Shown here one piece after another: positions 1,227-61,040 of a DNA stretch of 64,000 nucleotides. The stretch lies in NCBI GenBank assembly GCA_021404905.1, contig QWHN01000001.1:325275-389274 (forward strand). The letters are read 5' to 3'. The position numbers and the translations under genes were made by a program. Numbering within the stretch: the first letter of the stretch is position 1; every line of letters begins with the position of its first letter. The DNA comes from Candidatus Saccharibacteria bacterium CPR2. GTDB lineage: Bacteria; Patescibacteriota; Saccharimonadia; Saccharimonadales; QWHN01. The notes below the pieces were generated by a model. The model was given only the letters and a program-made list of their open reading frames with translations. It was not told where the DNA came from and searched no databases.

Positions 1227-1352
1227 CGTGCTTCGCACGCAGTTAACAATTAACAGTTTTCAATTTTCAAATAATGTAGTATGGAACTATTAGCTAACTG
1301 TAAACTATTTGGAAACTGGAAGTTGAACATTGAAAATTGCGCGCGAAGCGCG
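1227..1352 (+). repeat. Family-1 structured insertion module, copy in the RNase P P12 region
   Basis: Architecture: CGTGC-TTC-GCACG hairpin, long AT-rich imperfect hairpin (TTTTCAA / TGGAAA repeats), then CGCGC-GAA-GCGCG hairpin. Differs from 1535-1661 at 4 positions. Confidence 0.85.
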
Positions 1353-1534
1353 TATGGGTAAGGGTGAAAAGAGTGGGGCAAGAGCCCACAGCTCCGATGG
1401 GTGACTGTCGGAGGGGGTAAACCCTGCCAGCTGCAAGGTAGTGTGCGCAAACAGGTTGCTCGCCTAGCGTATGCAATATAATTCCGCTTGATCCCGATGG
1501 TGACATCGGGGCTAGATAGATGACCACCCATAAG

Positions 1535-1661
1535 CGTGCTTCGCACGCAGTTAACAATTATCAGTTTTCAATTTTCAAATAATGTAAGTATGGAACTATT
1601 ATCTAACTGTAAACTATTTGGAAACTGGAAATTGAACATTGAAAATTGCGCGCGAAGCGCG
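1535..1661 (+). repeat. Family-1 structured insertion module, copy just 5' of the P4 3' strand
   Basis: 127 nt. Identical to 1227-1352 except for 3 substitutions and one 1-nt indel. Flanked by CATAAG / CTTAGG host stem. Confidence 0.85.
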
Positions 1662-3011: not shown

Positions 3012-4517
3012 ATGGCTTCAACTGTAGCCTCAGCTGCAAATTTGGGATTTGACAATGTAATTATTAGTGTAGAGTGTGATAAATCTAAGGGTTTACCGTC
3101 TATAACAATTGTTGGGCTAGGTAATAAAGCTATAGACGAATCAAAAGAAAGAATTAGGGCTGCTCTTAGTAATAGCAAACTAGATCTTCCCAGGCAGCGG
3201 ATAACTTTGAATCTTGCTCCGGCTGATATGCAAAAGGATGGATCGTCCTTTGATCTGCCAATGGCATTGGCAATACTACTAGAAAGTGGGCAGATTCCAC
3301 TTACTTCTTTAAATAAAACGCTGGTAATCGGTGAACTGGCTCTTGATGGTTCAATAAGACCCATAAAAGGTGTACTCGGACACGTCCAAGCTGCGAAAAC
3401 CAATGGATTTAACAGAGTTATATTGCCGCCGGATAATTACTCTCAAGCGTCGTTAATTAAGGACATTGATTTGTTATCATTCGAATCGTTAAGGGATATT
3501 TATAACTATTTTTGCGGATTAACTGATAAACCAAAAACAATGGGCTTTAAGTCTGTTGATTTTAGTAAGCAAACAAGTGAATTTTCCCAGATAGTTGGGC
3601 AAGAACACGCCAAAAGAGCTTTAGAGGTTGCAGCAGCTGGGAGCCATAACATTTTATTCACAGGTCCTCCTGGAACAGGGAAAACCATGCTGGCCAAAGC
3701 TCTGCATGCCATCTTACCGGACCCTGTTGAAACTGAAATCGTAGAGATTACTAAATTATCAAGTCTTTCGGGTGAAAATACATCTACTATTGTGCAAAAA
3801 AGACCATTTCGGTCTCCTCACCACACAACCAGTTATATAGCTATGGTTGGGGGAGGTAGTAACCCAAAGCCAGGAGAAATAAGTTTGAGTCATCGCGGAG
3901 TTTTATTTCTGGACGAACTTCCGGAGTTTGGCAGGGCTACACTGGAGGCTCTTAGACAACCTCTGGAAGATAAGCAGGTTAGGATCTCCCGCGCGAATCG
4001 AAGTGTTTCTTACCCTGCTGATTTTATGCTGATAGCGACACAGAATCCCTGCCCATGTGGTTATTATGGTGATGAGTCAAAGGAATGTGTTTGTACGCCA
4101 AATCAAATCATGCAATACAACAAAAAAATATCCGGGCCTCTGCTCGATAGAATTGATATAGTTGTGCCGGTAAACAGAGTTGAGCACAGAGAGTTACTTA
4201 AAAATAATAAAGAATATTCTGATGAGCCAATTCGAAAGAGAGTATTAAGCGCCAGAAATGTTCAAAAGAAACGTTTCGGGAATTTATCAAAAACAAATTC
4301 TAATATGACCAATAGAGACATTAAAAAACATGTAATTATGACTGACAAAGCCAAAGATTTACTGGTGAGGGCGGGTCAATCACTTAACCTGTCACCAAGG
4401 GCTTGCATTCGTACTATTAAGGTTGCTCAAACAATTGTTGATTTAGATAACTGTGAAGTTGTAGACGTTGCACATATCTCAGAAGCCTTGCAGTATAGGC
4501 AGAGACAAGAAACTTAA
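3012..4517 (+). CDS. comM: YifB/ComM family Mg-chelatase-like ATPase
   Basis: Lon-protease-like N-terminal domain, Walker A GPPGTGKT, Walker B VLFLDELPEF. 501 aa. Confidence 0.9.
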   Translation: MASTVASAANLGFDNVIISVECDKSKGLPSITIVGLGNKAIDESKERIRAALSNSKLDLPRQRITLNLAPADMQKDGSSFDLPMALAILLESGQIPLTSLNKTLVIGELALDGSIRPIKGVLGHVQAAKTNGFNRVILPPDNYSQASLIKDIDLLSFESLRDIYNYFCGLTDKPKTMGFKSVDFSKQTSEFSQIVGQEHAKRALEVAAAGSHNILFTGPPGTGKTMLAKALHAILPDPVETEIVEITKLSSLSGENTSTIVQKRPFRSPHHTTSYIAMVGGGSNPKPGEISLSHRGVLFLDELPEFGRATLEALRQPLEDKQVRISRANRSVSYPADFMLIATQNPCPCGYYGDESKECVCTPNQIMQYNKKISGPLLDRIDIVVPVNRVEHRELLKNNKEYSDEPIRKRVLSARNVQKKRFGNLSKTNSNMTNRDIKKHVIMTDKAKDLLVRAGQSLNLSPRACIRTIKVAQTIVDLDNCEVVDVAHISEALQYRQRQET

Positions 4518-4561: not shown

Positions 4562-4968
4562 GGGGCTGATCAAAGCTTCGACGTAAGTATTAACATGCTA
4601 TATCCGCGAGCCGTTTTGCATATCGACATTGTGCAATTAATAAATGCAAATTCAGCATTTTCGCGATTTGTTGCATCTCTAAAGTCTACCTTTAGCGTTC
4701 CTCAATTCGCACCAGTTGTAGCTTAATTTATCTACAACCATCAGATGCCTGATACCGATTAAGGCAACACTGGTGTCATATTTATCGGAGTAGGTAAGTC
4801 AAGAGACTTCTTTTACCTCAAGACTCACCGAAACTTTTTGTAAAAGACGGTTTGAATCATTTTGTTTGTTTTATAGAAGCAAGCTGTATTTTTACTAAAC
4901 AAACTACGCTCGTAGACGAATAGCGTGTAACTTAACGGACCGGGGTGCGATTCCCCGCAGCTCCACCA
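4562..4968 (+). ncRNA. ssrA: tmRNA
   Basis: 5' GGGGCTGAT pairs with 3' ...GCAGCTCCACCA. tRNA-like T-arm GGGGTGCGATTCCCC. Candidate tag ORF 4646-4726 (ANSAFSRFVASLKSTFSVPQFAPVVA*). smpB lies nearby. Confidence 0.9.
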
Positions 4969-15191: not shown

Positions 15192-17747
15192 ATGACAGAA
15201 ACTAATGAAAATTCACCCATGGAAAACACTGACGAATCTGTTTTGAAAGTGGAAGAAAAAGCTAAAACTGTTGTTGCTCGAACTATTGAAGATGAAATGG
15301 AGCAGAGCTATCTGCAATATGCAATGTCTGTTATCGTTGCGCGCGCATTACCTGATGTTAGAGACGGGTTAAAACCAGTACAGAGAAGAATATTATATGT
15401 AATGGGTGAGAGTGGTTTACGCGCAAATGCCAAATTTCGTAAGTCTGCAACTGTGGTGGGTGATGTTATGGGTAGCTATCACCCCCATGGCGACAGCGCC
15501 ATATACGACACGATGGTAAGAATGGCTCAAGACTTTTCGATGCGTTACACCCTTGTTGACGGCCAAGGTAACTTTGGGTCAATGGATGGCGACCCTCCTG
15601 CAGCTTACAGATACACCGAAGCAAGAATGACAAAATTGTCTGAAGAAATGCTCTCAGATATAGACAAAGAGACAGTCGATTGGCGGCCAAACTTTGACGA
15701 TTCCAAACAAGAGCCAACCGTATTGCCGGCTCGTTTACCAAATCTTTTGTTAAATGGCCAAATAGGCATCGCAGTGGGAATGGCCACAAACATACCACCC
15801 CATAATTTATCTGAAGTAATCGATGCAACTATTGAATTGATCGACAACCCCAGCGCCGAGCTTGCTGACTTACTCAAATATGTTAAAGGGCCTGATTTTC
15901 CAACAGGGGCTATCGTATATGGGAAGGAATCACTCAGGCAGGCTTATGCTAGTGGTAGAGGAAGTGTTGTGGTGCGCGCTGTCGCTGAAATTGTTGAGAA
16001 GGCCGGAAAGAAAAACAATTATCAAATAATTGTAAGTGAAATACCCTACGCCCAAAACAAGGCAGCCCTCGTAGAGAAAATAGCCGAGTTAGTCAAAGAT
16101 AAAAAAATAAAGGGAATATCAGATTTAAGAGATGAGAGCTCCAGAGGATCGGTAAAGATCGTGATAGATCTTAAAAAAGACGCTTTTCCTAAAAAAATAC
16201 TCAACCAACTTTATAAACTTACCCCTTTACAGAGCTCATTCCATTTCAATATGCTTGCTTTAATAGATGGTATTCAGCCAAGAATACTTGGGCTTGAAGC
16301 TATTCTCAAAGAGTATGTTAAGCATAGGCAGCTTGTTGTACGTCGTAGAACCGAATTTGAGCTTAAGAAAGCCCAGGCAAGAGCGCACATACTGGAAGGC
16401 TTGAGCAAAGCTCTAGACCATATAGATGAGGTCATAGAAACGATTAGAAACAGTGACACGACTGAAACTGCCAGAACCAACTTAATGAAAAGATTCAGCT
16501 TCTCGGAAATTCAAGCAAATGCAATTCTTGCAATGCAACTTCGCACACTTGCGGGACTTGAGAGGAAAAAGATCGAAGATGAATTTGCCGAACTGAAAAA
16601 ACTAATAGCAAAATTGAAGGATATTCTTGCTGATGAGAAGAAAGTATTAACCATTGTAAGAAATGAATTGATAGAAGTAAAAGAAAAGTATGGAGACCCA
16701 AGGAAGACAAAAATCATTCCTCAAGAACTAGGAAAATTTTCAGAAGAAGAGTTAATACCAGACGAACAAGTTATTGTTACCATGACGGCCGCGAATTATA
16801 TAAAAAGAAATAATGTCGGGGAATATAAAAGACAGGGTCGTGGTGGCAAGGGGCGAAGAAGCATAGTCACAAAAGAGGAAGATGTAATTGAACATCTGAT
16901 ATACGCGAGCACACATGATTATTTGTTATTCTTTACCAATAAAGGTCGCGTTTTTAGAATAAAAACATACGAGATACCACACGCTAGCCTTCAGGCGAAA
17001 GGCACCCCAGTGGTAAACATATTACAACTGCAACCGGAAGAAGAGGTGACGTCAGTAATCAATATGGATAAAACTCAGTCTGGGGAAGTAAAATTCTTAT
17101 GCATGGCAACCAAACAAGGGGTTGTAAAGAAAACATCGTTAGATCAATATCAAAATGTTCGCAGCTCCGGTCTCATAGCAATAAGTCTTGATGATAAAGA
17201 TGAATTAAGGTGGGTTAGACTAACGAATGGTGATAATGATGTAATAATTTCTACGACTAAAGGTCAGGCTATCAGATTTCATGAAAATGATGTGAGACCA
17301 ATGGGAAGGAGTGCCAGGGGTGTGCGCGGTATAAGATTGCGTCCAGATGATAAGGTGATAGACATGACGGTTGCGGATAAGGATGCCAGTCTGTTTGTCA
17401 TTAGTGAGCAGGGTTATGGAAAAAGAACTAAAATTGAGCATTTTGCCGTGCATAGGCGCGGTGGAGTTGGGATTAGAGCAGCTGTCGTGAATAACAAAAC
17501 TGGTAATTTGATAGGGGTACAATCCCTGAAGGAAGAATCTGATGAAATAATTATTATTTCATGCCAAGGTCAGACGATTAGGTTGCACTTAAAAGATATT
17601 CCTTCCATGGGTAGAACTACCCAAGGAGTGCGCATTATGAGAATGAATAGTGGAGACAAAGTTGCATCCTTGGCATTAATGAGAAAAGTAGAGGGTGATG
17701 AAGATGAGGTTGTTGATCAACCCGATGACATTGTTTCTAAGGCGTAG
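15192..17747 (+). CDS. gyrA: DNA gyrase subunit A
   Basis: Motifs [32 protein letters not shown], and C-terminal beta-pinwheel repeats. 851 aa. Confidence 0.97.
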
Positions 17748-17909: not shown

Positions 17910-18071
17910 GTCATATGATTGTTTTACAATCATATAGATACTAGAGTCTAGCTTCTAGAAGCTAGTATCGTGACTTTGAATTTAAACTAAGTCGATCAAA
18001 CTAGGGTTGCTATGAATTATTCTAAGTTCTAGCATCTAACCACTAGATTCTGAATTCGTCTAAGCGAATTC

Positions 18072-18106
18072 TTTTTTGGAGAGTTTGATCCTGGCTCAGG
18101 ATGAAC
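18072..18106 (+). repeat. Upstream duplicate of the 16S 5' end
   Basis: TTTTTTGGAGAGTTTGATCCTGGCTCAGGATGAAC is repeated exactly at 18197-18231 (125-nt period). Confidence 0.9.
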
Positions 18107-18201
18107 CTTGTGTCGAAGACGCAGCTTATATAATGACGGCGATTACGCCGCCAGAATATTAAGTGTAGGTTTATCTTTGGCTGGACGCTTTCTAAATTTT
18201 T

Positions 18202-18248
<47 letters not shown>

Positions 18249-18266: not shown

Positions 18267-18410
18267 CAGCATACGTTCCACTTTGCGCGGAACGCAGAAA
18301 ATAGACGATAGACCTTGGAATTTAGAATAAAAGAGATCCTTTTATTTCTAATTTCTATAGTCAAACTTCTAACTTCTAAGAGCGTAACGCGTGGCGTGGA
18401 GCGTGATGGC
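18267..18410 (+). repeat. Family-2 structured insertion in the 16S helix-6 (V1) region
   Basis: Lies between GTCGAACGG and GAGTGGCGGACGGGTGAG, where about 35-40 nt is usual. Shares TAGACC-TGGA, TTAGAATAAAAG, TTCTAATTTCTA and TCTAAGAG blocks with 23S 22548-22682. Confidence 0.8.
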
Positions 18411-18496: not shown

Positions 18497-18650
18497 GCTT
18501 CTCATCAAGATTCGAAGCATTTAACATTTTACATTTGGCATTTAACAATAAATTGGCATTTTTCAGATAGCATCTATCTGTTAAATGGTAATTGCTAAAT
18601 TAATGCAAAATGAGAATTGATAAATGATAATTCGAGGTTTGATGAGAAAC
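18497..18650 (+). other. AT-rich insertion of about 154 nt in the 16S ~position-200 region
   Basis: Closed by stem CTTCTCATCAA / TTGATGAGAAA, between CTAATACCGCATACGGT and CATCAAAGCC. Internal (T)TTAACATTT / GGCATTT repeats. Confidence 0.75.
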
Positions 18651-19819: not shown

Positions 19820-19957
19820 TACCACGAAAGTCGGGGGCGCCCGAAGCTCCGCTTCGAGCGGATCTAAGGTGAATCCGATGATTGGGGTAAAGTCGTAACA
19901 AGGTATCCGTACGGGAACGTGCGGATGGATTACCTCCTTTCTAGGGAGATATACTAA

Positions 19958-20060
19958 CCAGCGCTTCGCGCTGGAAATTTCAAAAATCAATTTTCAAATC
20001 TCAAACGTTAATGTTTGTAATTTGGTACTTGGAAATTGGAATTTCTAACGCGAAGCGTTA
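19958..20060 (+). repeat. Family-1-type module in the spacer just 3' of 16S
   Basis: CCAGCGC-TTC-GCGCTGG hairpin, AT-rich hairpin (CAATTTTCAAA ... TTGGAAATTGGAA), then TAACGC-GAA-GCGTTA hairpin. Confidence 0.75.
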
Positions 20061-20139
20061 GGTAGGTCGGTCTTGTTTGTTGGCGTGAACCGCAACAAAC
20101 TTAGTTCGCTGTATAGCGAAAAGATGGTTCAATACTTAT

Positions 20140-20169: not shown

Positions 20170-20201
20170 ATAAACCCCGCTATATTTATAGCGGGGTTTA
20201 T
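20170..20201 (+). terminator. Strong hairpin after the 16S unit (likely terminator)
   Basis: ATAAACCCCGCTAT-ATTT-ATAGCGGGGTTTAT followed by a U-rich CTTTCC. Lies immediately after the 16S processing stem. Confidence 0.55.
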
Positions 20202-20482
20202 CTTTCCATAACGTTTGTTATGGGAGATAACAAAAAACCAATTATATTATCGTGAAGTCCCAGAATCAAAAAAACTCCATAAAGTGATACCAAGATGCCC
20301 AGTAGTTGGAATGCAATGTAAGTTGCCCCTGAACCAAAATTGCGCTCAAACCAGTTATTGTGACTAAACATATTTGAAATTTGATAGTTGAACTTCAACA
20401 TCGCGATTCCAGCAACAACTAAAATCAAACCGAAGAATATATTAACAATCATTGTGATTATGATTGTAACAATAAATAACAC
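20198..20482 (-). CDS. Possible small membrane protein encoded antisense between 16S and tRNA-Ala
   Basis: 94-aa ORF with about three hydrophobic helices, a GTG start and no obvious SD. The T-rich strand composition could mimic hydrophobic coding. Confidence 0.35.
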   Translation of the reverse strand: MLFIVTIIITMIVNIFFGLILVVAGIAMLKFNYQISNMFSHNNWFERNFGSGATYIAFQLLGILVSLYGVFLILGLHDNIIGFLLSPITNVMER

Positions 20483-20601: not shown

Positions 20602-20773
20602 CCACGTCGGAGCAAGCTATCAACTTGCGATAACGCAATAACATCTTTGATTTTATTGCGTGTCTCCGGCTTTTTGCTCCTCCCTTCAAATTTACAAATA
20701 GTTTTGCTTGGTTTGTAAATTTGGATTGTTCTCTCTACAAATGCACATTAATAATCTGTCGAATCCAATTGGA

Positions 20774-20808
20774 GGGTGATTAGCTCAGCAGTTAGAGCGC
20801 GTCACTGG
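20774..20808 (+). pseudogene. tRNA 5'-half-like fragment (acceptor, D-arm, start of anticodon stem)
   Basis: GGGTGAT TA GCTC AGCAGTTA GAGC G CGTCA CTGG, with no matching 3' half adjacent. The acceptor strand can pair with GTCGCCC at 21089-21095. Confidence 0.5.
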
Positions 20809-20843
20809 AAATGCAGTTTAACAACGCGTTAAATATTTTTGAA

Positions 20844-20920
20844 GGGCCTGTAGCTCAGTGGCCTAGAGCGCTTCACTGATAATGAAGAGGTCCCTGGTTC
20901 AAATCCAGGCAGGCCCACCA
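20844..20920 (+). tRNA. tRNA-Ile (anticodon GAU)
   Basis: Perfect cloverleaf: GGGCCTG/CAGGCCC, anticodon stem CTTCA/TGAAG, loop CTGATAA, T-arm CCTGG-TTCAAAT-CCAGG, encoded CCA. Confidence 0.93.
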
Positions 20921-20963
20921 AAAATATTTAACCTCCTTGATTTCAAGTGAACGGAGTGGACGT

Positions 20964-21005
20964 CTAATGAAGAGGTCCCTGGTTCAAGTCCTGGCAAGCC
21001 CACCA
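20964..21005 (+). pseudogene. tRNA-Ile 3'-half-like fragment
   Basis: CTAATGAAGAGGTCCCTGGTTCAAGTCCTGGCAAGCCCACCA is nearly identical to the 3' half of tRNA-Ile. The T stem has a U-U mismatch and there is no 5' half. Confidence 0.6.
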
Positions 21006-21023
21006 ACTGAGCTTGATTCAATA

Positions 21024-21099
21024 CATAAGAGGTCCGTGGTTCATCCCGTTAGAAAACAAATTCGTTTCTAACGGGATTCAAATCCTGGGTCGCCCACCA
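21024..21099 (+). pseudogene. Second tRNA 3'-half-like fragment with a 33-nt hairpin inserted in the T-loop
   Basis: CATAAGAGGTCCGTGGTTCA [TCCCGTTAGAAAACAAATTCGTTTCTAACGGGA] TTCAAATCCTGGGTCGCCCACCA. TTCA is duplicated on both sides of the hairpin (21040-21043 and 21077-21080). Confidence 0.55.
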
Positions 21100-21185
21100 A
21101 ACAAGTACAAACTTTGAGTTTATAGTGATAACTATTAAGTTTCTGTCCATCTTCATTGTAATAAATACATTAGCTCAAATAACAC

Positions 21186-21773: not shown

Positions 21774-21893
21774 GATGGCGCTTCGCATAAGAACTTTCAA
21801 GCAAAACAGTTATCAAATATCATTTTTCAGTTTTCATTGATTAAAAACTGATAACTCATTGAAATTTGGTAATTGAAAATTGAAAATTCTTGT
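21774..21893 (+). repeat. Family-1-like AT-rich hairpin insertion in 23S domain I
   Basis: GCG-CTT-CGC clamp, then a long hairpin AAGAACTTTCAAG...TTTTCAGTTTTCA / TTGAAAATTGAAAATTCTT. Part of about 330 nt of extra sequence between 21760 and 22185. Confidence 0.65.
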
Positions 21894-22265
21894 GTGAGGT
21901 GCCGCTTGGATAAGGCGGCAGCCGAATGCAAGCTGGGGGTTGTGAGTTACCAAATGACCAATCCCGACTGGCCATATAATGGCACGTCGGGATTGCGAAA
22001 GAGATCTGCCAAATCTCTTCTAAGGTAAGAAAATTGCTATGCTAGCAGAAGTATTTGGAAAGATACGCCAAAGAAAGTGATAGCCTTGTACGCGAAAGCT
22101 TAGCAAACCTTATATTTGGTAGAAACCAACTTGTTGGTTTCGATAAATATCCAAGCCAAAACTTGGATATTTATTTACTCGAGTAGGTCGGGACACGGGA
22201 AACCCTGACTGAATCTGGGAGGACCACCTTCCAAGGCTAAATATATCTTACGATCGATAGTGAAT

Positions 22266-22348: not shown

Positions 22349-22446
22349 CTTGTGCGAAGCACAAGAATTTTCAAAGACCAATTTTCAATTTTCAAACAAA
22401 TGAAAACTGAGAACTGGAAACTGGAAATTCTCGCGCTTTGCGCGAG
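22349..22446 (+). repeat. Family-1 module replacing the tip of 23S helix 25
   Basis: 98 nt: CTTGTGC-GAA-GCACAAG, AATTTTCAAAGACCAATTTTCAATTTTCAAAC...GAAAACTGAGAACTGGAAACTGGAAATT, then CTCGCGC-TTT-GCGCGAG. Lies between GGAGTCGGAG and TGACGGCGTGC. Confidence 0.85.
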
Positions 22447-22547: not shown

Positions 22548-22682
22548 GTGCGTCTCACTGGCGCGAGACTTTAGAATCTAGACCATGGAAGATTGAAGTT
22601 AGAATAAAAGGAAATTTATTTAATTCTAATTTCTACGGTCCAATTTCTGAATTCTAGAGCGACTCGCGTGAGTGAGGCGCAT
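22548..22682 (+). repeat. Family-2 module in 23S domain II (about E. coli position 636)
   Basis: GC clamps GTGCGTCTCACTGGCGCGAGAC / CGACTCGCGTGAGTGAGGCGCA enclose an AT-rich arm homologous to 16S 18267-18410. Confidence 0.8.
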
Positions 22683-23194
22683 ACAGTCATATGGATTAGA
22701 CCCGAAACCGAGTGACCTAACCATGGGCAGGTTGAAGTGCCGGTAACACGGCATGGAGGACCGCACCAGGGAGTGTTGCAAAACTCTTGGATGACCTGTG
22801 GTTAGCGGTGAAATGCCAATCGAACTCGGCAATAGCTGGTTCTCCTCGAAATAGCTTTAGGGCTAGCGTTGTGTTTGCAGCATGTGGAGGTAGAGCTCTG
22901 TTTAGGACTGGGGCCCGCAAGGGTACCCACCCTTGACAAACTACGAATACCATATGTGAAGTCACAGCAGTTAGAATCTCGGCGCTAAGGTCGGGACTCA
23001 AAAGGGAAACAGCCCAGACCATCATCTAAGGTCCCAAAATTTACGCTAAGTGGGAAACGAGGTGAGATCACTTAGACAGCGAGGATGTTGGCTTAGAAGC
23101 AGCCATTCATTTAAAGAGTGCGTAACAGCTCACTCGTCAAGCGATCTTGCGCGGAAAATGTAACGGGGCTCAAGCGTAATACCGAAGATATGGA

Positions 23195-23292
23195 CTTGCG
23201 CACTGCGCAAGAATTTTCAAAGACCAATTTTCAATTTTCAAACGTTTGGAAACTGAGAACTGGAAACTGGAAATTCTCGCGCACTGCGCGAG
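23195..23292 (+). repeat. Family-1 module replacing the tip of 23S helix 45
   Basis: 98 nt. The central 64 nt is identical to 22366-22429 at 60 of 64 positions. The GC clamps show a compensatory change (CTTGCGC/GCGCAAG versus CTTGTGC/GCACAAG). Confidence 0.85.
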
Positions 23293-23588: not shown

Positions 23589-23705
23589 GTACCTCACTCG
23601 CGTGAGGATGCAGAGGCTGGATTCTTGATTCTAGATTCTGGAGAAAAAACTCCTAACATCTAGCATCTAACTTCTAGAATCTGCACGTCGTGTGAGTGAG
23701 GTGCA
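23589..23705 (+). repeat. Family-2-like module in 23S domain III
   Basis: Clamps GTACCTCACTCGCGTGAGG / CGTCGTGTGAGTGAGGTGC enclose TCTAGA/TTCTAA-type repeats. CTAGCATCTAAC is also present in the 16S leader (about 18031). Confidence 0.65.
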
Positions 23706-25125: not shown

Positions 25126-25645
25126 TAGGCGCACGGTGTAAGCACGGTAACGTGTTGAGCTTAAGCGTACTAATAGGTCCATTGACTTTTTATGCACCTA
25201 AACAAGCACACCGCATCAACTGTTTGCAAACACAGTTTGCAATACCTTGATGCTTCTGACGCGCTACTACGTCAGCAAGTCCAGTACTTGGTTCGCTGTA
25301 TTCTTGATACAGCTTCACCAATTGCTTCCTTGCTTTCTTGTATTGCATCCAGATGTGATTGTTTAGGACTACAATGGTTTTTGACTAGTGATTGGTGCAT
25401 ACCAGGCGTCGCTTATGCGGCGCAGTAACTAGGAACTACAAGATAGGAACTAGTATAGGTTAGCACCCGAGAAGCACACAATAAAAATGAATCTAGTTCA
25501 TTTAGAAGCTCGAAGCTAGAAGTTAGAATCTGGCGAATAGCACATTAAAACAAACGAGCACCGTAAATGGGCATCGACCAGCCGCTTTAGTTTGAAAATT
25601 GATTCGCTACAAAGCGAATGAAAATTGAAAACTGGAGCGAAGCGA

Positions 25646-51401: not shown

Positions 51402-51684
51402 GAAAACTTGGCTGAACAAAAAGTTTATGCTAACATCAAAGCGTATCCTCCAACGAAAATAAAAAATCGTTAGATCCACCACGAGAGATACAAACAAAAA
51501 ATAATCCGCTTTGCGACGAAATGTCGTGCGGGTTGAGGTTAAAAACAAAACATGGTTAGACTGACAGGGTTAATTGCCCTGTTGTCCACTGTCTTAGGTA
51601 TTGCTCTAAGAGCTATATCCATTATTTGGGTTACCTTAAAGCAAGTAGAGAATCGAGCAAAAAACGCTTGTAGGTTTTTTATTT

Positions 51685-51716
51685 CGCGTATGCGCACGCA
51701 TACGCGTGTTTTTTAT
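51685..51716 (+). terminator. Strong intrinsic terminator inside the listed ORF 51552
   Basis: CGCGTATGCG-CA-CGCATACGCG followed by TGTTTTTTATTT. Confidence 0.7.
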
Positions 51717-51820
51717 TTCGCACGCGTACGCGTGGGGTCAAACAGAGGAAAAATCAGGCAATTTCCAATTATCATCCACTGGCCAGCGGACCAATTTTCA
51801 AACAAAACGCAAATCCTAAA

Positions 51821-51850
51821 TTCCCAATTCCCAATTCCCAATTCCCAATT
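51821..51850 (+). repeat. (TTCCCAA)x4 heptamer tandem repeat
   Basis: Four exact heptamers plus TT. Preceded by GACCAATTTTCAAACAAA, which also occurs (with one extra TTTTCAA unit) in the 23S helix-25 module. Confidence 0.9.
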
Positions 51851-51968
51851 GCTAGTTTCTAACTCATGGGATAAATGCCGGCAAATCGCCAGCACAATTG
51901 CCGCGTCTGCTGGCGAATTGCGGGCATTTATCCGAGCTAACCTAATTTACCGCTTGGGCGCACCAAAA

Positions 51969-53135
51969 GTGCGCCAGTTTGGCGTTCGCGGGGTCCACCA
52001 GAGGCAGGCCCGTCTCCACCTGTCTACTCCCGCTAAACTTATAGGGGTGCTCACCGTATTCTTGGTGAGCACCCTTGCAGGATTTATTATTCAGTTTACG
52101 GATCAAACGCCAAAACCGGCATATGCTGCCATCAACGAACAGCTCAACTTTCAAGCACGCCTCTACAATGCCAGTGGGGGGATAGCGAGCGATGGCAACT
52201 ATAACCTGCAATTTCACATTTATAGCGGCGGTGATGGGGACCCGGATACGGCGGATGAAACGCTGGAGTGGACAGGGAGTTATCTCAAAGGTAACACTGA
52301 CGGAGTAGATGTAGCTAACGGCTACTTTAATGTACAGCTTGGCGATTCTGTTTCTCAGGTGAATACTATGGCTGACGTTGACTGGGATAATAGCACTTTG
52401 TGGCTCTCGATAAATATTGGCGATACATCATCGACTGGCACGACAACATGTGATACTGAGTCGGAGTTTGATTCAAACTGTGGTGGAGACGGGGAAATGG
52501 ATCCATTCCTGCGTCTTACATCTGTACCATATGCGTTCAACTCCAAATATCTTGGCGGAAGAAGCTCAAGCCAGTTCGCGCAGCTTGACCCAAGTTCTCA
52601 GCAAACAGGCAGTATAGATATATCTGGCACGGTAAACGCTGCGGCGCTAAACCGTACCGGAGGAAATCTTACTCTTCAAACCACTACGTCAGGAAATATA
52701 GTAATCAATGGCGCTGGAACTTTAGATGTTCAGGACGCGGCGACTTTTGCAAGCACGATTGGAGTTACAGGTACAGCAACATTCAACGGGGATGTCGATC
52801 TAGTATTGGCCGACACTGAAAACTTATCTGTTTCAAACACTGTCACCGGAACCAATGGTGTTGATCTCGTCTCGACGGTATTAACCAACAACACCACTTC
52901 TGGAACTCAGAGGATAGCAGTATTGCAAAACGCAGCAGGTAGCGGTACGACGGAAGCATTATTGGTTTTGGATAATGCGGATGCAGATACAGCAGTAACC
53001 ACTGGTTTGCAGGTAACAAGTGCTGCTGGGACGATAGGTACAGCAATAGATATATCTGATACTGAAATTGGAACAGGAATAAGCCTGGTCAAGTCCAAAC
53101 ACCGTTACTTGATACTGCCTCAGCCGTTGCTCTGA
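51969..53135 (+). CDS. Secreted/surface beta-helix-like protein, N-terminal part (frame 0)
   Basis: Basic n-region, hydrophobic LIGVLTVFLVSTLAGFII and AYA|A (signal-peptide-like), then T/S/G/N/D-rich repeats. The start is uncertain (GTG 51969 or GTG 52047). The first ~139 codons of the listed ORF cross a terminator and repeats, so they are probably non-coding. Confidence 0.6.
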   Translation: MRQFGVRGVHQRQARLHLSTPAKLIGVLTVFLVSTLAGFIIQFTDQTPKPAYAAINEQLNFQARLYNASGGIASDGNYNLQFHIYSGGDGDPDTADETLEWTGSYLKGNTDGVDVANGYFNVQLGDSVSQVNTMADVDWDNSTLWLSINIGDTSSTGTTTCDTESEFDSNCGGDGEMDPFLRLTSVPYAFNSKYLGGRSSSQFAQLDPSSQQTGSIDISGTVNAAALNRTGGNLTLQTTTSGNIVINGAGTLDVQDAATFASTIGVTGTATFNGDVDLVLADTENLSVSNTVTGTNGVDLVSTVLTNNTTSGTQRIAVLQNAAGSGTTEALLVLDNADADTAVTTGLQVTSAAGTIGTAIDISDTEIGTGISLVKSKHRYLILPQPLL

Positions 53136-60240: not shown

Positions 60241-61040
60241 CTGCAAGGAGCCTCCTTGCAGAAACAGGGTTGCCTATCTGTTCTTGCAAGGAGCCTCCTT
60301 GCAATTTGAGATTTTATGTTATAGTAGCTTTATGCCAGCAAGAAACATAGAAAAAATATACGCTAGCGAAGTTTATTATCATTTGTATAACAGGGGTGTA
60401 GAAAAACGTGATATTTTTATGGATGATGAAGACTATAGAGTCTTTCTGAATTTGCTCAAAAGATATTTGGGGGTTGAAAAATTCATAGATAAATTCGGCA
60501 GAGAGTATCCAAATTATCACGAGAGAATAGATTTAATATCATATTCTCTGATGCCTAATCACTACCATCTTCTTTTGTGGGTAAATGACGATATGGCGAT
60601 GACAGACTTGTTAAGATCACTGGCAACTGCTTATAGCATGTATTTTAACAAAAAATATAAAAGGGTAGGTAAATTGTTTCAGGATAGATTTAAAGCATCG
60701 ATGATAAGAAGCGAAGAATATTTATGGCATATCACAAGATATATACATCTTAATTCGGAAGATATTGGCAAGAAATTTAATGAATATAAATACTCTAGTT
60801 ACAAATACTATGAAGGCAAGGCGCAGGCAGAGTGGGTGAAGCCAGGTGTAATTATCGATATGTTTAAGGAAGCGAACCAAGATTATAAAAAATTCCATGA
60901 AGATTACATAGATTATAGGAATTCGCTAAAATTTATTGATCTGACAGAATAGGGTAAAACTTTCATCCAACTTAAGCTAGCGAATATCTCATAAGGAAAA
61001 GCTTTAACATTTTGCAAGGAGGCTCCTTGCAAAATGTTAA
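60241..61040. mobile_element. REPtron-like unit: RAYT transposase gene flanked by REP-like palindromes
   Basis: CTGCAAGGAGCCTCCTTGCAG (60241-60261) and TTGCAAGGAGCCTCCTTGCAA (60284-60304) lie upstream. Inverted-orientation TTGCAAGGAGGCTCCTTGCAA (61012-61032) lies downstream, within a 37-nt perfect palindrome (61004-61040). Confidence 0.7.
60332..60952 (+). CDS. IS200/IS605-like Y1 transposase, RAYT type
   Basis: YHLYNRGVEKRDIF, MPNHYHLLL (HUH motif) and a tyrosine-containing YIHLN region. ATG 60332 preferred, because the upstream part of the listed ORF covers the palindrome. Confidence 0.8.
   Translation: MPARNIEKIYASEVYYHLYNRGVEKRDIFMDDEDYRVFLNLLKRYLGVEKFIDKFGREYPNYHERIDLISYSLMPNHYHLLLWVNDDMAMTDLLRSLATAYSMYFNKKYKRVGKLFQDRFKASMIRSEEYLWHITRYIHLNSEDIGKKFNEYKYSSYKYYEGKAQAEWVKPGVIIDMFKEANQDYKKFHEDYIDYRNSLKFIDLTE

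Follow-up and report, generated by a model that had tools for sequence, protein, structure and literature searches.

Why is the RNase P RNA gene (rnpB) of Candidatus Saccharibacteria bacterium CPR2 so long, and what becomes of the additional length once the gene is transcribed? We analysed a 64,000-nt stretch of this genome (assembly GCA_021404905.1, contig QWHN01000001.1, positions 325,275 to 389,274; hereafter the window, whose own numbering is used for its features). A first-pass annotation, made by reading the bare sequence, had recognised rnpB by its P4 strands. Scanning the window with Rfam cmscan confirmed this identity: RF00010, the model of bacterial type-A RNase P RNA, matches 1098-1698 on the forward strand at 200.6 bits (gathering score 100) with all model positions, 1-367, covered. 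The alignment sets the 5' strand of P4 (GAGGAAAGUCCGGGC) at 1134-1148 and its 3' strand (ACAGAACCCGGCUUA) at 1668-1682, both on the forward strand. The earlier type-A assignment stands, and the earlier length estimate of ~605 nt is corrected to 601 nt. Two blocks of the gene are left unaligned to the model, one at the apex of P12 and one in J2/4, where it sits between the 3' strands of P2 and P4, the position of helix P19. Helix P19 is present in some bacterial type-A and type-B RNase P RNAs (PMC2858038). We give a probability of about one in two to the reading developed below, that the two blocks are double-stranded RNA (dsRNA) rods of the intervening sequence (IVS) type grafted onto an intact type-A RNase P RNA of ~348 nt, and that RNase III would cleave them.

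Each block is a copy of the same module. Copy A (1227-1352, 126 nt) occupies the tip of P12 and copy B (1535-1661, 127 nt) the P19 position in J2/4, both on the forward strand. The cmscan placement agrees with the first-pass annotation, which had put one copy at P12 and the other immediately 5' of the P4 3' strand. Alignment likewise bore out its count of four differences between near-identical modules: three substitutions and one single-base indel in 127 columns, or ~97% identity. BLAST of copy A against copy B gave E=7e-58, a likeness far beyond chance. The limits of identity are exact, running from the first base of CGTGC-TTC-GCACG to the last base of CGCGC-GAA-GCGCG. These terminal GC palindromes form perfect local 5-bp hairpins at 1227-1239 and 1340-1352 in copy A, and recur with identical sequence at 1535-1547 and 1649-1661 in copy B. 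Beyond these limits the flanks are unrelated (TTGGA and TATGG bracket the insert at P12, ATAAG and CTTAG the insert at J2/4). Removing both copies leaves 348 nt, the usual size for this gene, as the rnpB genes of relatives measure 304-404 nt; the extra length is the two module copies, as had been proposed.

We then placed the gene among its relatives in a survey of 82 distinct Saccharibacteria rnpB cores, measured from the 5' to the 3' strand of P4. The cores came from genome contigs scanned with L20 and from metagenome contigs scanned with the Nudix-RNase H protein encoded next to rnpB. Neither scan brought up a close relative (best 71% for L20 in the genome contigs, 47% for Nudix-RNase H in the metagenome contigs). 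The P4 5' strand is conserved in all 82 survey relatives. Their P4-to-P4 length has a median of 300 nt (quartiles 290-316), and the 549 nt of the window gene is the largest value of the 82. The P12 region, with a median of 25 nt, reaches at least 90 nt in 3 of 78 survey cores; the J2/4 region, with a median of 10 nt, does so in 4 of 82. Only the window rnpB is expanded at both sites among the surveyed cores. These medians, together with the lack of alignment to the Rfam model, uphold the earlier view of the two segments as insertions rather than ordinary helices. Rods of unrelated sequence occur at P12 in L169 (P12 region 197 nt) and at J2/4 in L006 (173 nt), L168 (169 nt) and L095 (126 nt), and L172 (1634-2096) carries a rod of ~170 nt in its P15-17 arm, with the base CCGAGACU...AGUCUCGG. 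The rods of other species cannot be aligned. Rod insertion at the outer helix tips of rnpB is therefore recurrent in the phylum but sporadic, which fits the remark of Lui, Nielsen and Arkin (2021; PMC8172020) that diverged RNase P RNAs of the candidate phyla radiation (CPR) have large helix extensions or missing helices, with an extended P15 as an example. Smaller irregularities also turned up in the survey. L014 (~3598-3936, reverse strand) and L107 have ~50 extra nt after P12; contigs L170, L171 and L173 stop 130-300 nt from the upstream gene, and the end of L173 coincides exactly with the start of the insert in L172.

The module is shared with the rRNA operon of the same genome. This operon runs 16S, tRNA-Ala, tRNA-Ile, 23S and 5S with unusually long spacers, and its 16S (1743 nt) and 23S (3714 nt) genes are also expanded, at the usual variable helices. 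Searching 1.1 Mb with a family profile in nhmmer matched both rnpB copies, the 16S trailer, three sites in 23S and the P12 insert of a sister species, L167, and nothing else; family members part cleanly from the background. The member in the 16S 3' trailer (19957-20062, forward strand, E=1.7e-23) begins 17 nt past the 16S 3' end and consists of CCAGCGC-TTC-GCGCTGG, an AT-rich hairpin and CTAACGC-GAA-GCGTTAG. Within 23S, one member replaces the tip of helix 25 (22349-22446, forward strand, E. coli ~540-550, E=1.6e-21) and another replaces helix 45 (23195-23292, forward strand, E. coli ~1164-1185), placements that we checked by alignment to E. coli 23S. A distant member lies in the 23S insert near E. 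coli position 275 (21778-21902, forward strand, E=1.5e-7). The helix 25, helix 45 and 16S-trailer modules have the design of the rnpB module and its arm sequences. A profile built from these three rRNA modules alone finds the rnpB P12 module over its full length (E=6e-6, 28.1 bits, against 6.3 bits for the best of 500 composition-preserving shuffles) as well as the distant member (E=3.8e-7). This result substantiates the first-pass claim of a design shared with 23S rRNA and the spacer downstream of 16S.

All six window copies lie in the sense orientation, and each nhmmer match scores better in sense. BLAST and nhmmer found no module copies in the 64-kb window outside rnpB and the rRNA operon, and scanning a viral contig collection for the module signature gave 0 matches. 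In the identity matrix the two rnpB copies agree in 98% of aligned columns and the helix 25 and helix 45 modules in 89%, while rnpB modules compared with the rRNA modules of the window agree in 65-68%. Taken over all the different genes of this genome, modules are 65-71% alike, and the window P12 module and the P12 insert of L167 agree in 55%. Likeness among the modules thus follows the genome, and above all the gene, and not the site, which suggests repeated copying or gene conversion inside this genome.

The sister species also reveals the order in which the rnpB copies arose. L167, from sample ERR4450749, has the same gene order as the window; its Nudix-RNase H is 71% identical, and its GyrA (window gene at 15192-17747) is 90% identical. 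The window GyrA itself matches an NCBI protein of Candidatus Saccharibacteria bacterium CPR2 (taxid 2293640) with 100% identity across 99% of its length. The L167 P12 insert measures ~96 nt and has termini homologous to those of the window (TGTGCTTCGCAC...GGCGCGGGGCGCA) around an interior that cannot be aligned. From the clearly homologous termini, the P12 module is older than the split of the two species. The J2/4 region of L167 is 31 nt long and holds a 17-nt mini-hairpin in place of a module. Its lack of a J2/4 module and the 97% identity of copies A and B together show that the P12 module was copied into J2/4 at a much later time. The P12 copy is the older, and the J2/4 copy arose from it recently, at the DNA level. 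Recent copying had been proposed in the first-pass annotation, and the diverged P12 insert and bare J2/4 mini-hairpin of L167 lend it support. The sister-species contigs reached through GyrA end at or just before 16S.

Folding predicts that each module is one long rod. The minimum-energy fold of copy A is a single continuous rod of ~49 bp (-44.6 kcal/mol, z=-5.9), and copy B gives a continuous ~49-bp rod as well (-51.1 kcal/mol, z=-8.8). The rods are rich in A-U and G.U pairs, carry a GC clamp at the base and have arms built of ~7-nt units (TTTTCAA, TGGAAA). Two of the differences between the copies are apical, and the other two turn an A.A mismatch into a U-A pair and a G.U pair into an A-U pair in copy B. 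Owing to the G.U pairs, the sense strand folds better than the antisense strand by at least 7 kcal/mol in 11 of 13 rods (for example, -43.5 vs -25.0 kcal/mol in L167 and -74.7 vs -43.3 kcal/mol in L168). Sense-strand stability of this origin is a mark of selection on the transcribed RNA rather than on a DNA palindrome. Two broader methods were of less use for finding rods. Folding both strands of the entire 64 kb in sliding windows was too blunt, with GC-rich coding regions also scoring well; a gapless inverted-repeat search recovered only some of the rods, and flagged palindromes at 51869-51933 and 60242-60303.

The first-pass annotation had drawn each module as three hairpins. Forcing that fold yields -36.6 kcal/mol against -51.1 kcal/mol, making it ~14 kcal/mol dearer than the rod, so the minimum-energy fold speaks against this part of the earlier description. 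Its terminal GC hairpins, by comparison, hold up well: the terminal elements are perfect Watson-Crick palindromes in four of four module types in the window (52 of 52 pairs). When the same strands pair with each other in the rod of copy A, 1227-1239 with 1340-1352, the 13 positions comprise 11 Watson-Crick pairs, one G.U and one A.C. Perfect palindromes combined with a mirrored G.U and A.C imply that compensation has taken place within each small hairpin, at the expense of the rod. There are zero linker nucleotides between the elements, which would allow the base of the module to switch between the rod and a perfect four-way junction. Given the conserved palindromes, the rod and the three-hairpin fold are both possible.

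In kind, the modules are bacterial IVSs, or expansion-type rods. Bacterial IVSs are found at 23S helix 25, at helix 45 and at 16S helix 6 or 10, and RNase III excises them without re-ligation, as in Salmonella, Leptospira, Campylobacter and Coxiella. The rnpB inserts are extended stem-loops at outer, naturally variable sites of a stable RNA. They occur sporadically, at the frequencies given by the survey for large P12 and large J2/4 regions and with no J2/4 module in L167, and the rRNA-only profile links them to the elements in helix 25 and helix 45. On this basis, we propose that one element of ~126 nt was grafted twice, onto the tip of P12 and into the P19 position in J2/4. Transcribed within the RNase P RNA, the element would fold into a double-stranded rod of ~50 bp, which RNase III would recognise and cut as it does the classical IVSs of helix 25 and helix 45. 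Cutting would leave a mature ribozyme of two or three pieces, joined by P1, P2, P4, the remaining core and the stubs of P12 and P19. We infer the cleavage step because long, near-perfect dsRNA is a substrate of RNase III and because family members sit at both textbook IVS sites. A processing role also fits the presence of rods near mature rRNA termini, 17 nt past the 3' end of 16S and 5 nt ahead of the 5' end of 5S. The only likeness of the module in Rfam is a sub-threshold, full-length match to a pre-miRNA hairpin (36 bits against a gathering score of 101), that is, to generic long dsRNA.

Published surveys provide a setting for such elements. CPR genomes generally keep rnc (PMC12641178). Tsurumaki et al. 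(PMC11270868) report that, of the 66 inserts in Saccharibacteria rRNA, 64 are short, are not introns and carry no endonuclease, and that across the CPR many short non-intron inserts lie at helix 25 and helix 45, which they read as probable RNase III IVSs; RNase P is not mentioned there. A literature search for experimental work on rRNA fragmentation in Saccharibacteria found none. A fuller scenario remains tentative, and we regard it as rather doubtful: the rod family, specific to this genome, would spread among the stable-RNA genes of the lineage (23S, 16S trailer, RNase P RNA) with a preference for copying between sites of the same gene, and RNase III would excise the rods to leave a three-piece RNase P ribozyme of ~130, 190 and 40 nt held together only by base pairing. 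If true, it would be the first case of a bacterial RNase P RNA that is fragmented in nature.

Several points weigh against the RNase III reading, and in one rival the rods are simply retained. Excision of the rods is something that we purely infer. The palindromic ends always cost the rod a mirrored G.U plus an A.C, in four of four window module types. A plain RNase III rod leaves such ends unexplained, and they hint instead that the elements form a four-way junction, bind a protein or fold into a hairpin at the DNA level. A target-site duplication or shared target sequence was looked for at the P12 and J2/4 flanks and none was found, and the rnc signature ERLEFLGD is absent from the 64-kb window, which is a fraction of the genome. 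Extensions of P12 and P19 are tolerated in other RNase P RNAs, the STRR sequences (short, repeated in tandem, repetitive) in cyanobacterial P12 among them, so that retention is compatible with function; with both sites outer and naturally variable, it is equally compatible here. In that case the ribozyme would be a single 601-nt molecule whose rods persist as inert or mildly useful expansion segments, like those of eukaryotic rRNA or the P12 heptamers of cyanobacteria. We consider this quite possible, if not probable. It gains from the choice of outer, variable insertion sites, from the natural occurrence of P19 in some type-A and type-B RNAs (PMC2858038), from the report of large helix extensions in CPR RNase P RNAs that makes no claim of processing (PMC8172020), and from the maintained GC palindromes, which would be in keeping with a stable four-way junction or a platform for protein binding. 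It is harder to reconcile with family members that lie in the textbook RNase III IVS sites of 23S (helix 25 and helix 45) and beside mature rRNA ends, or with near-perfect 50-bp rods that are expected RNase III substrates in genomes that keep rnc. Moreover, the interiors of the rods have diverged between the sister species with almost no constraint, and hence have no sequence-specific function.

The remaining rivals concern how the modules came to be where they are. They might be non-autonomous DNA transposons, resembling miniature inverted-repeat transposable elements (MITEs) or REPINs, that are moved in trans by a hairpin-recognising Y1 (HUH) transposase and survive only at harmless helix tips of stable RNA genes. 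The copied unit does have exact ends at two inverted palindromic GC elements that match at 11 of 13 positions, whole units have been copied to sites without homology (from P12 to J2/4, and at helix 25 and helix 45), and a RAYT-like Y1 transposase, of an enzyme class that acts on DNA hairpins, is encoded in the window (60284-60952). We nevertheless judge this origin improbable. The modules have neither a target-site duplication nor a common target sequence; they are missing from the rest of the 64 kb outside stable-RNA genes and spacers, and from the viral contigs; all copies are in sense, and the G.U asymmetry shows selection on RNA. Their terminal stems vary (CGTGC, CCAGCGC, CTTGTGC, CTCGCGC), keeping shape and not sequence, which a sequence-specific transposase would not tolerate, and the palindrome of the RAYT-like gene, TGCAAGGAG-S-CTCCTTGCA, bears no relation to the ends of the modules and occurs in the window only beside its own gene. 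Slow, site-specific helix growth, with likeness arising by convergence on AT-rich simple repeats, could draw on the ~7-nt units of the arms and on the variation of P12 and J2/4 lengths across the phylum. We hold it to be very improbable and in effect refuted: convergence does not account for two 126-nt units that are 97% identical and end at exactly the same bases, L167 lacks the J2/4 module, and shuffled sequences stay at or below 6.3 bits where the real module scores 28.1. Finally, a repeat might have been misplaced or duplicated within rnpB during assembly, a possibility that the first-pass annotation had raised. Near-identical repeats of 126 nt can mislead short-read assemblers, and several contigs of relatives break near rnpB. 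Yet four Logan assemblies, each from its own sequencing run (L001-L004), contain the 601-nt gene with 100% identity, the four inter-copy differences included, and with one and the same L20-to-Nudix spacing, and the sister species independently carries a P12 insert. A fifth contig (L005) stops inside the J2/4 module. The agreement of four independent assemblies excludes an artefact for practical purposes.

Three other identities were tried and rejected. A group I or group II intron found no match to any intron family even at E up to 10, and 126 nt without an open reading frame (ORF) is too small for one. A bulge-helix-bulge motif of the archaeal splicing type was sought at the rod base, where the folds show 1-nt bulges only. 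The modules also fail as terminators: the sense strand has no T-run, and there is only a weak antisense terminator-like match at 1662-1648.

A Nudix-RNase H fusion gene (184-1062) lies upstream of rnpB, and rplT-rpmI-infC follows on the other side on the opposite strand. This gene order is kept in the sister species and in many relatives, and the window rnpB appears to be the orthologous, syntenic gene and not a decayed extra copy. A promoter-like site at 1059-1088 on the forward strand (TTGAAA, an 18-nt spacer, TAAAAT; 10/12 in a consensus scan, and a consensus match only) would put the transcript start near the Rfam 5' end at 1098. Downstream, direct reading of the sequence revealed a hairpin at 1706-1739, AACACTGC-AAACAA-GCAGTGTT, assigned to neither strand, with an A-run on its 5' side and a T-run on its 3' side. 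It is probably a two-way terminator for rnpB on the forward strand and rplT on the reverse strand; it is absent from the output of a pattern scan for terminators in the window. Another stable RNA of the window, the tmRNA gene at 4562-4968 (407 nt), has no module insert, and its predicted tag peptide is long, ANSAFSRFVASLKSTFSVPQFAPVVA, at 26 aa.

Further repeats populate the rRNA operon. A second terminal style, GUCUCACU...AGUGAGGC, unites three rods: one in 23S of the window, near position 653, and those that L168 and L095 carry in J2/4 of rnpB. A second AT-rich rod family, built of TCTAGA, TTAGAA and TTCTAA units, is found in 16S helix 6 (18272-18403), in 23S near positions 653 (22549-22684) and 1500 (23593-23700), in the 16S leader (18022-18052) and in the 23S-5S spacer (25500-25529), with pairwise identities of 76-84%; the ends of the position-1500 rod, CCUCACU...AGUGAGG, resemble those of the position-653 rod. 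The insert in 16S helix 10 (18497-18641) has a third repeat style, with CATTTAAC, GGCATTT and AAATG units. A relative whose GyrA is 76% identical, L176, has 16S with short, ordinary helices 6 and 10, which marks the 16S inserts of the window as lineage-specific too. A rod of ~25 bp at 25583-25642, its arms made of GAAAATTGA and TTTGAAAA, stops 5 nt short of the 5' end of 5S. The rods beside the 5S 5' end and the 16S 3' end suggest that local hairpins, and not long-range pairing of leader with trailer, serve as rRNA processing sites.

Other oddities of the operon involve duplicated ends and fragments of its genes. The first 35 nt of 16S (TTTTTTGGAGAGTTTGATCCTGGCTCAGGATGAAC, 18197-18231) are exactly duplicated 125 nt upstream in the leader (18072-18106). 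Folding predicts that this leader copy is paired with 18165-18197 in a long helix just before the true 16S 5' end. A sister-species contig, L175, has a single copy of this 35-mer in the 272 nt upstream of its 16S. The tRNA-Ile gene (20844-20920) has its 3' half repeated at 20965-21006 (93% identical); a third piece like a tRNA 3' half lies at ~21029-21100, with a hairpin interrupting the T-arm, and a piece like a 5' half at ~20771-20812. Integration events or the turnover of tRNA genes could have left these fragments, which span 20771-21100, as a relic. Between 16S and tRNA-Ala, a spacer of 585 nt contains a reverse-strand ORF of 94 aa (20198-20482), apparently hydrophobic by sequence and matching nothing in Pfam.

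Two groups of palindromes in the window are unrelated to the modules. One group flanks the RAYT-like gene (REP-associated tyrosine transposase; REP, repetitive extragenic palindromic), which came to light when unassigned ORFs were scanned with Pfam. Its reading frame at 60284-60952, with a probable ATG at 60332, matches Pfam PF01797 at 39.8 bits (cutoff 23) and the NCBIfam model of REP-associated tyrosine transposases at 39.8 bits, below its cutoff of 80, and the protein has an HUH motif and the motifs NHYHLLLW and YIHLN. The palindrome is perfect and occurs only three times in the window, at 60242-60260, 60285-60303 and 61013-61031, with GTAG a few nucleotides upstream of the copy at 60242-60260. 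Gene and palindromes look like a REP/RAYT system in a CPR genome. The other group, GC-rich and perfect or nearly so, lies in or at the start of the ORF 51552-53135 and comprises CGCGTATGCGCACGCATACGCG at 51685-51706, 26-nt arms that are 92% complementary at 51869-51933, and GGCGCACCAAAAGTGCGCC at 51957-51975.

What would a fragmented or extended RNase P RNA of this kind change? In textbooks, the RNase P RNA of bacteria is a ribozyme of one chain. Split versions made by engineering work in vitro, and we know of no natural split bacterial RNase P RNA; the window gene is a concrete natural candidate for one, and the importance of the locus rests on whether its RNA is fragmented in vivo. Beyond this gene, IVS-type elements are not confined to rRNA, since one family here colonises several stable RNAs and is copied between helix tips, and the similarity pattern (same gene above same genome above same site in the sister species) offers a clue to how IVSs spread. 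There are practical consequences as well. The inserts lower covariance-model scores, to 200 bits here against ~250-267 for most relatives without large inserts, and they break short-read assemblies near rnpB, which affects completeness checks of CPR genomes. The first-pass claim of novelty survives in part. We found no description of an IVS in RNase P RNA in the searchable literature, nor of a family shared with rRNA and present twice; short rRNA inserts of Saccharibacteria (PMC11270868) and helix extensions of CPR RNase P RNAs (PMC8172020) were already known. What is new is that rRNA and RNase P RNA have a rod family in common, that a single ribozyme gene carries near-identical copies at two of its sites, and that a dated, recent copying went from helix tip to helix tip within one gene.

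Comparison with known systems sharpens the picture. Cyanobacterial STRRs are tandem heptamers widespread in intergenic DNA, and Vioque (1997, Nucleic Acids Res 25:3471; cited in PMC2858038) is reported to have described them in P12 of rnpB in heterocyst-forming cyanobacteria. As in that case, a repeat family with members elsewhere in the genome lengthens P12 of a type-A RNA and the arms are built of ~7-nt units; by contrast, the window unit is a discrete 126-nt rod with defined ends, seen in stable-RNA transcripts only and present at a second site, J2/4. Correia elements of Neisseria are cut by RNase III in transcripts, and REP doublets are moved by RAYT transposases. The window modules resemble MITEs and REPINs in their length of ~100-150 nt, inverted ends and long RNA hairpins, with a RAYT-like gene in the same window. 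They differ in having no target-site duplication and no ordinary intergenic copies in the window, in being sense only and G.U-rich, and in end stems whose sequence is not conserved. The diverged CPR RNase P RNAs of PMC8172020 share long helix extensions that depart from the Rfam model, and the P15-17 rod of L172 is comparable to these; that report mentions neither a repeated module nor a link with inserts in rRNA, nor a combination of P12 and J2/4 extensions. The closest counterparts are the rRNA IVSs, which are stem-loops of ~100-200 nt that replace outer helix tips of a stable RNA, occur sporadically among related species and form sequence families common to several sites, and the window family has members exactly at helix 25 and helix 45. 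What sets the rnpB modules apart from them is the perfect palindromes at their ends, an excision that is so far predicted, and a host that is RNase P RNA, with two near-identical copies in one small gene.

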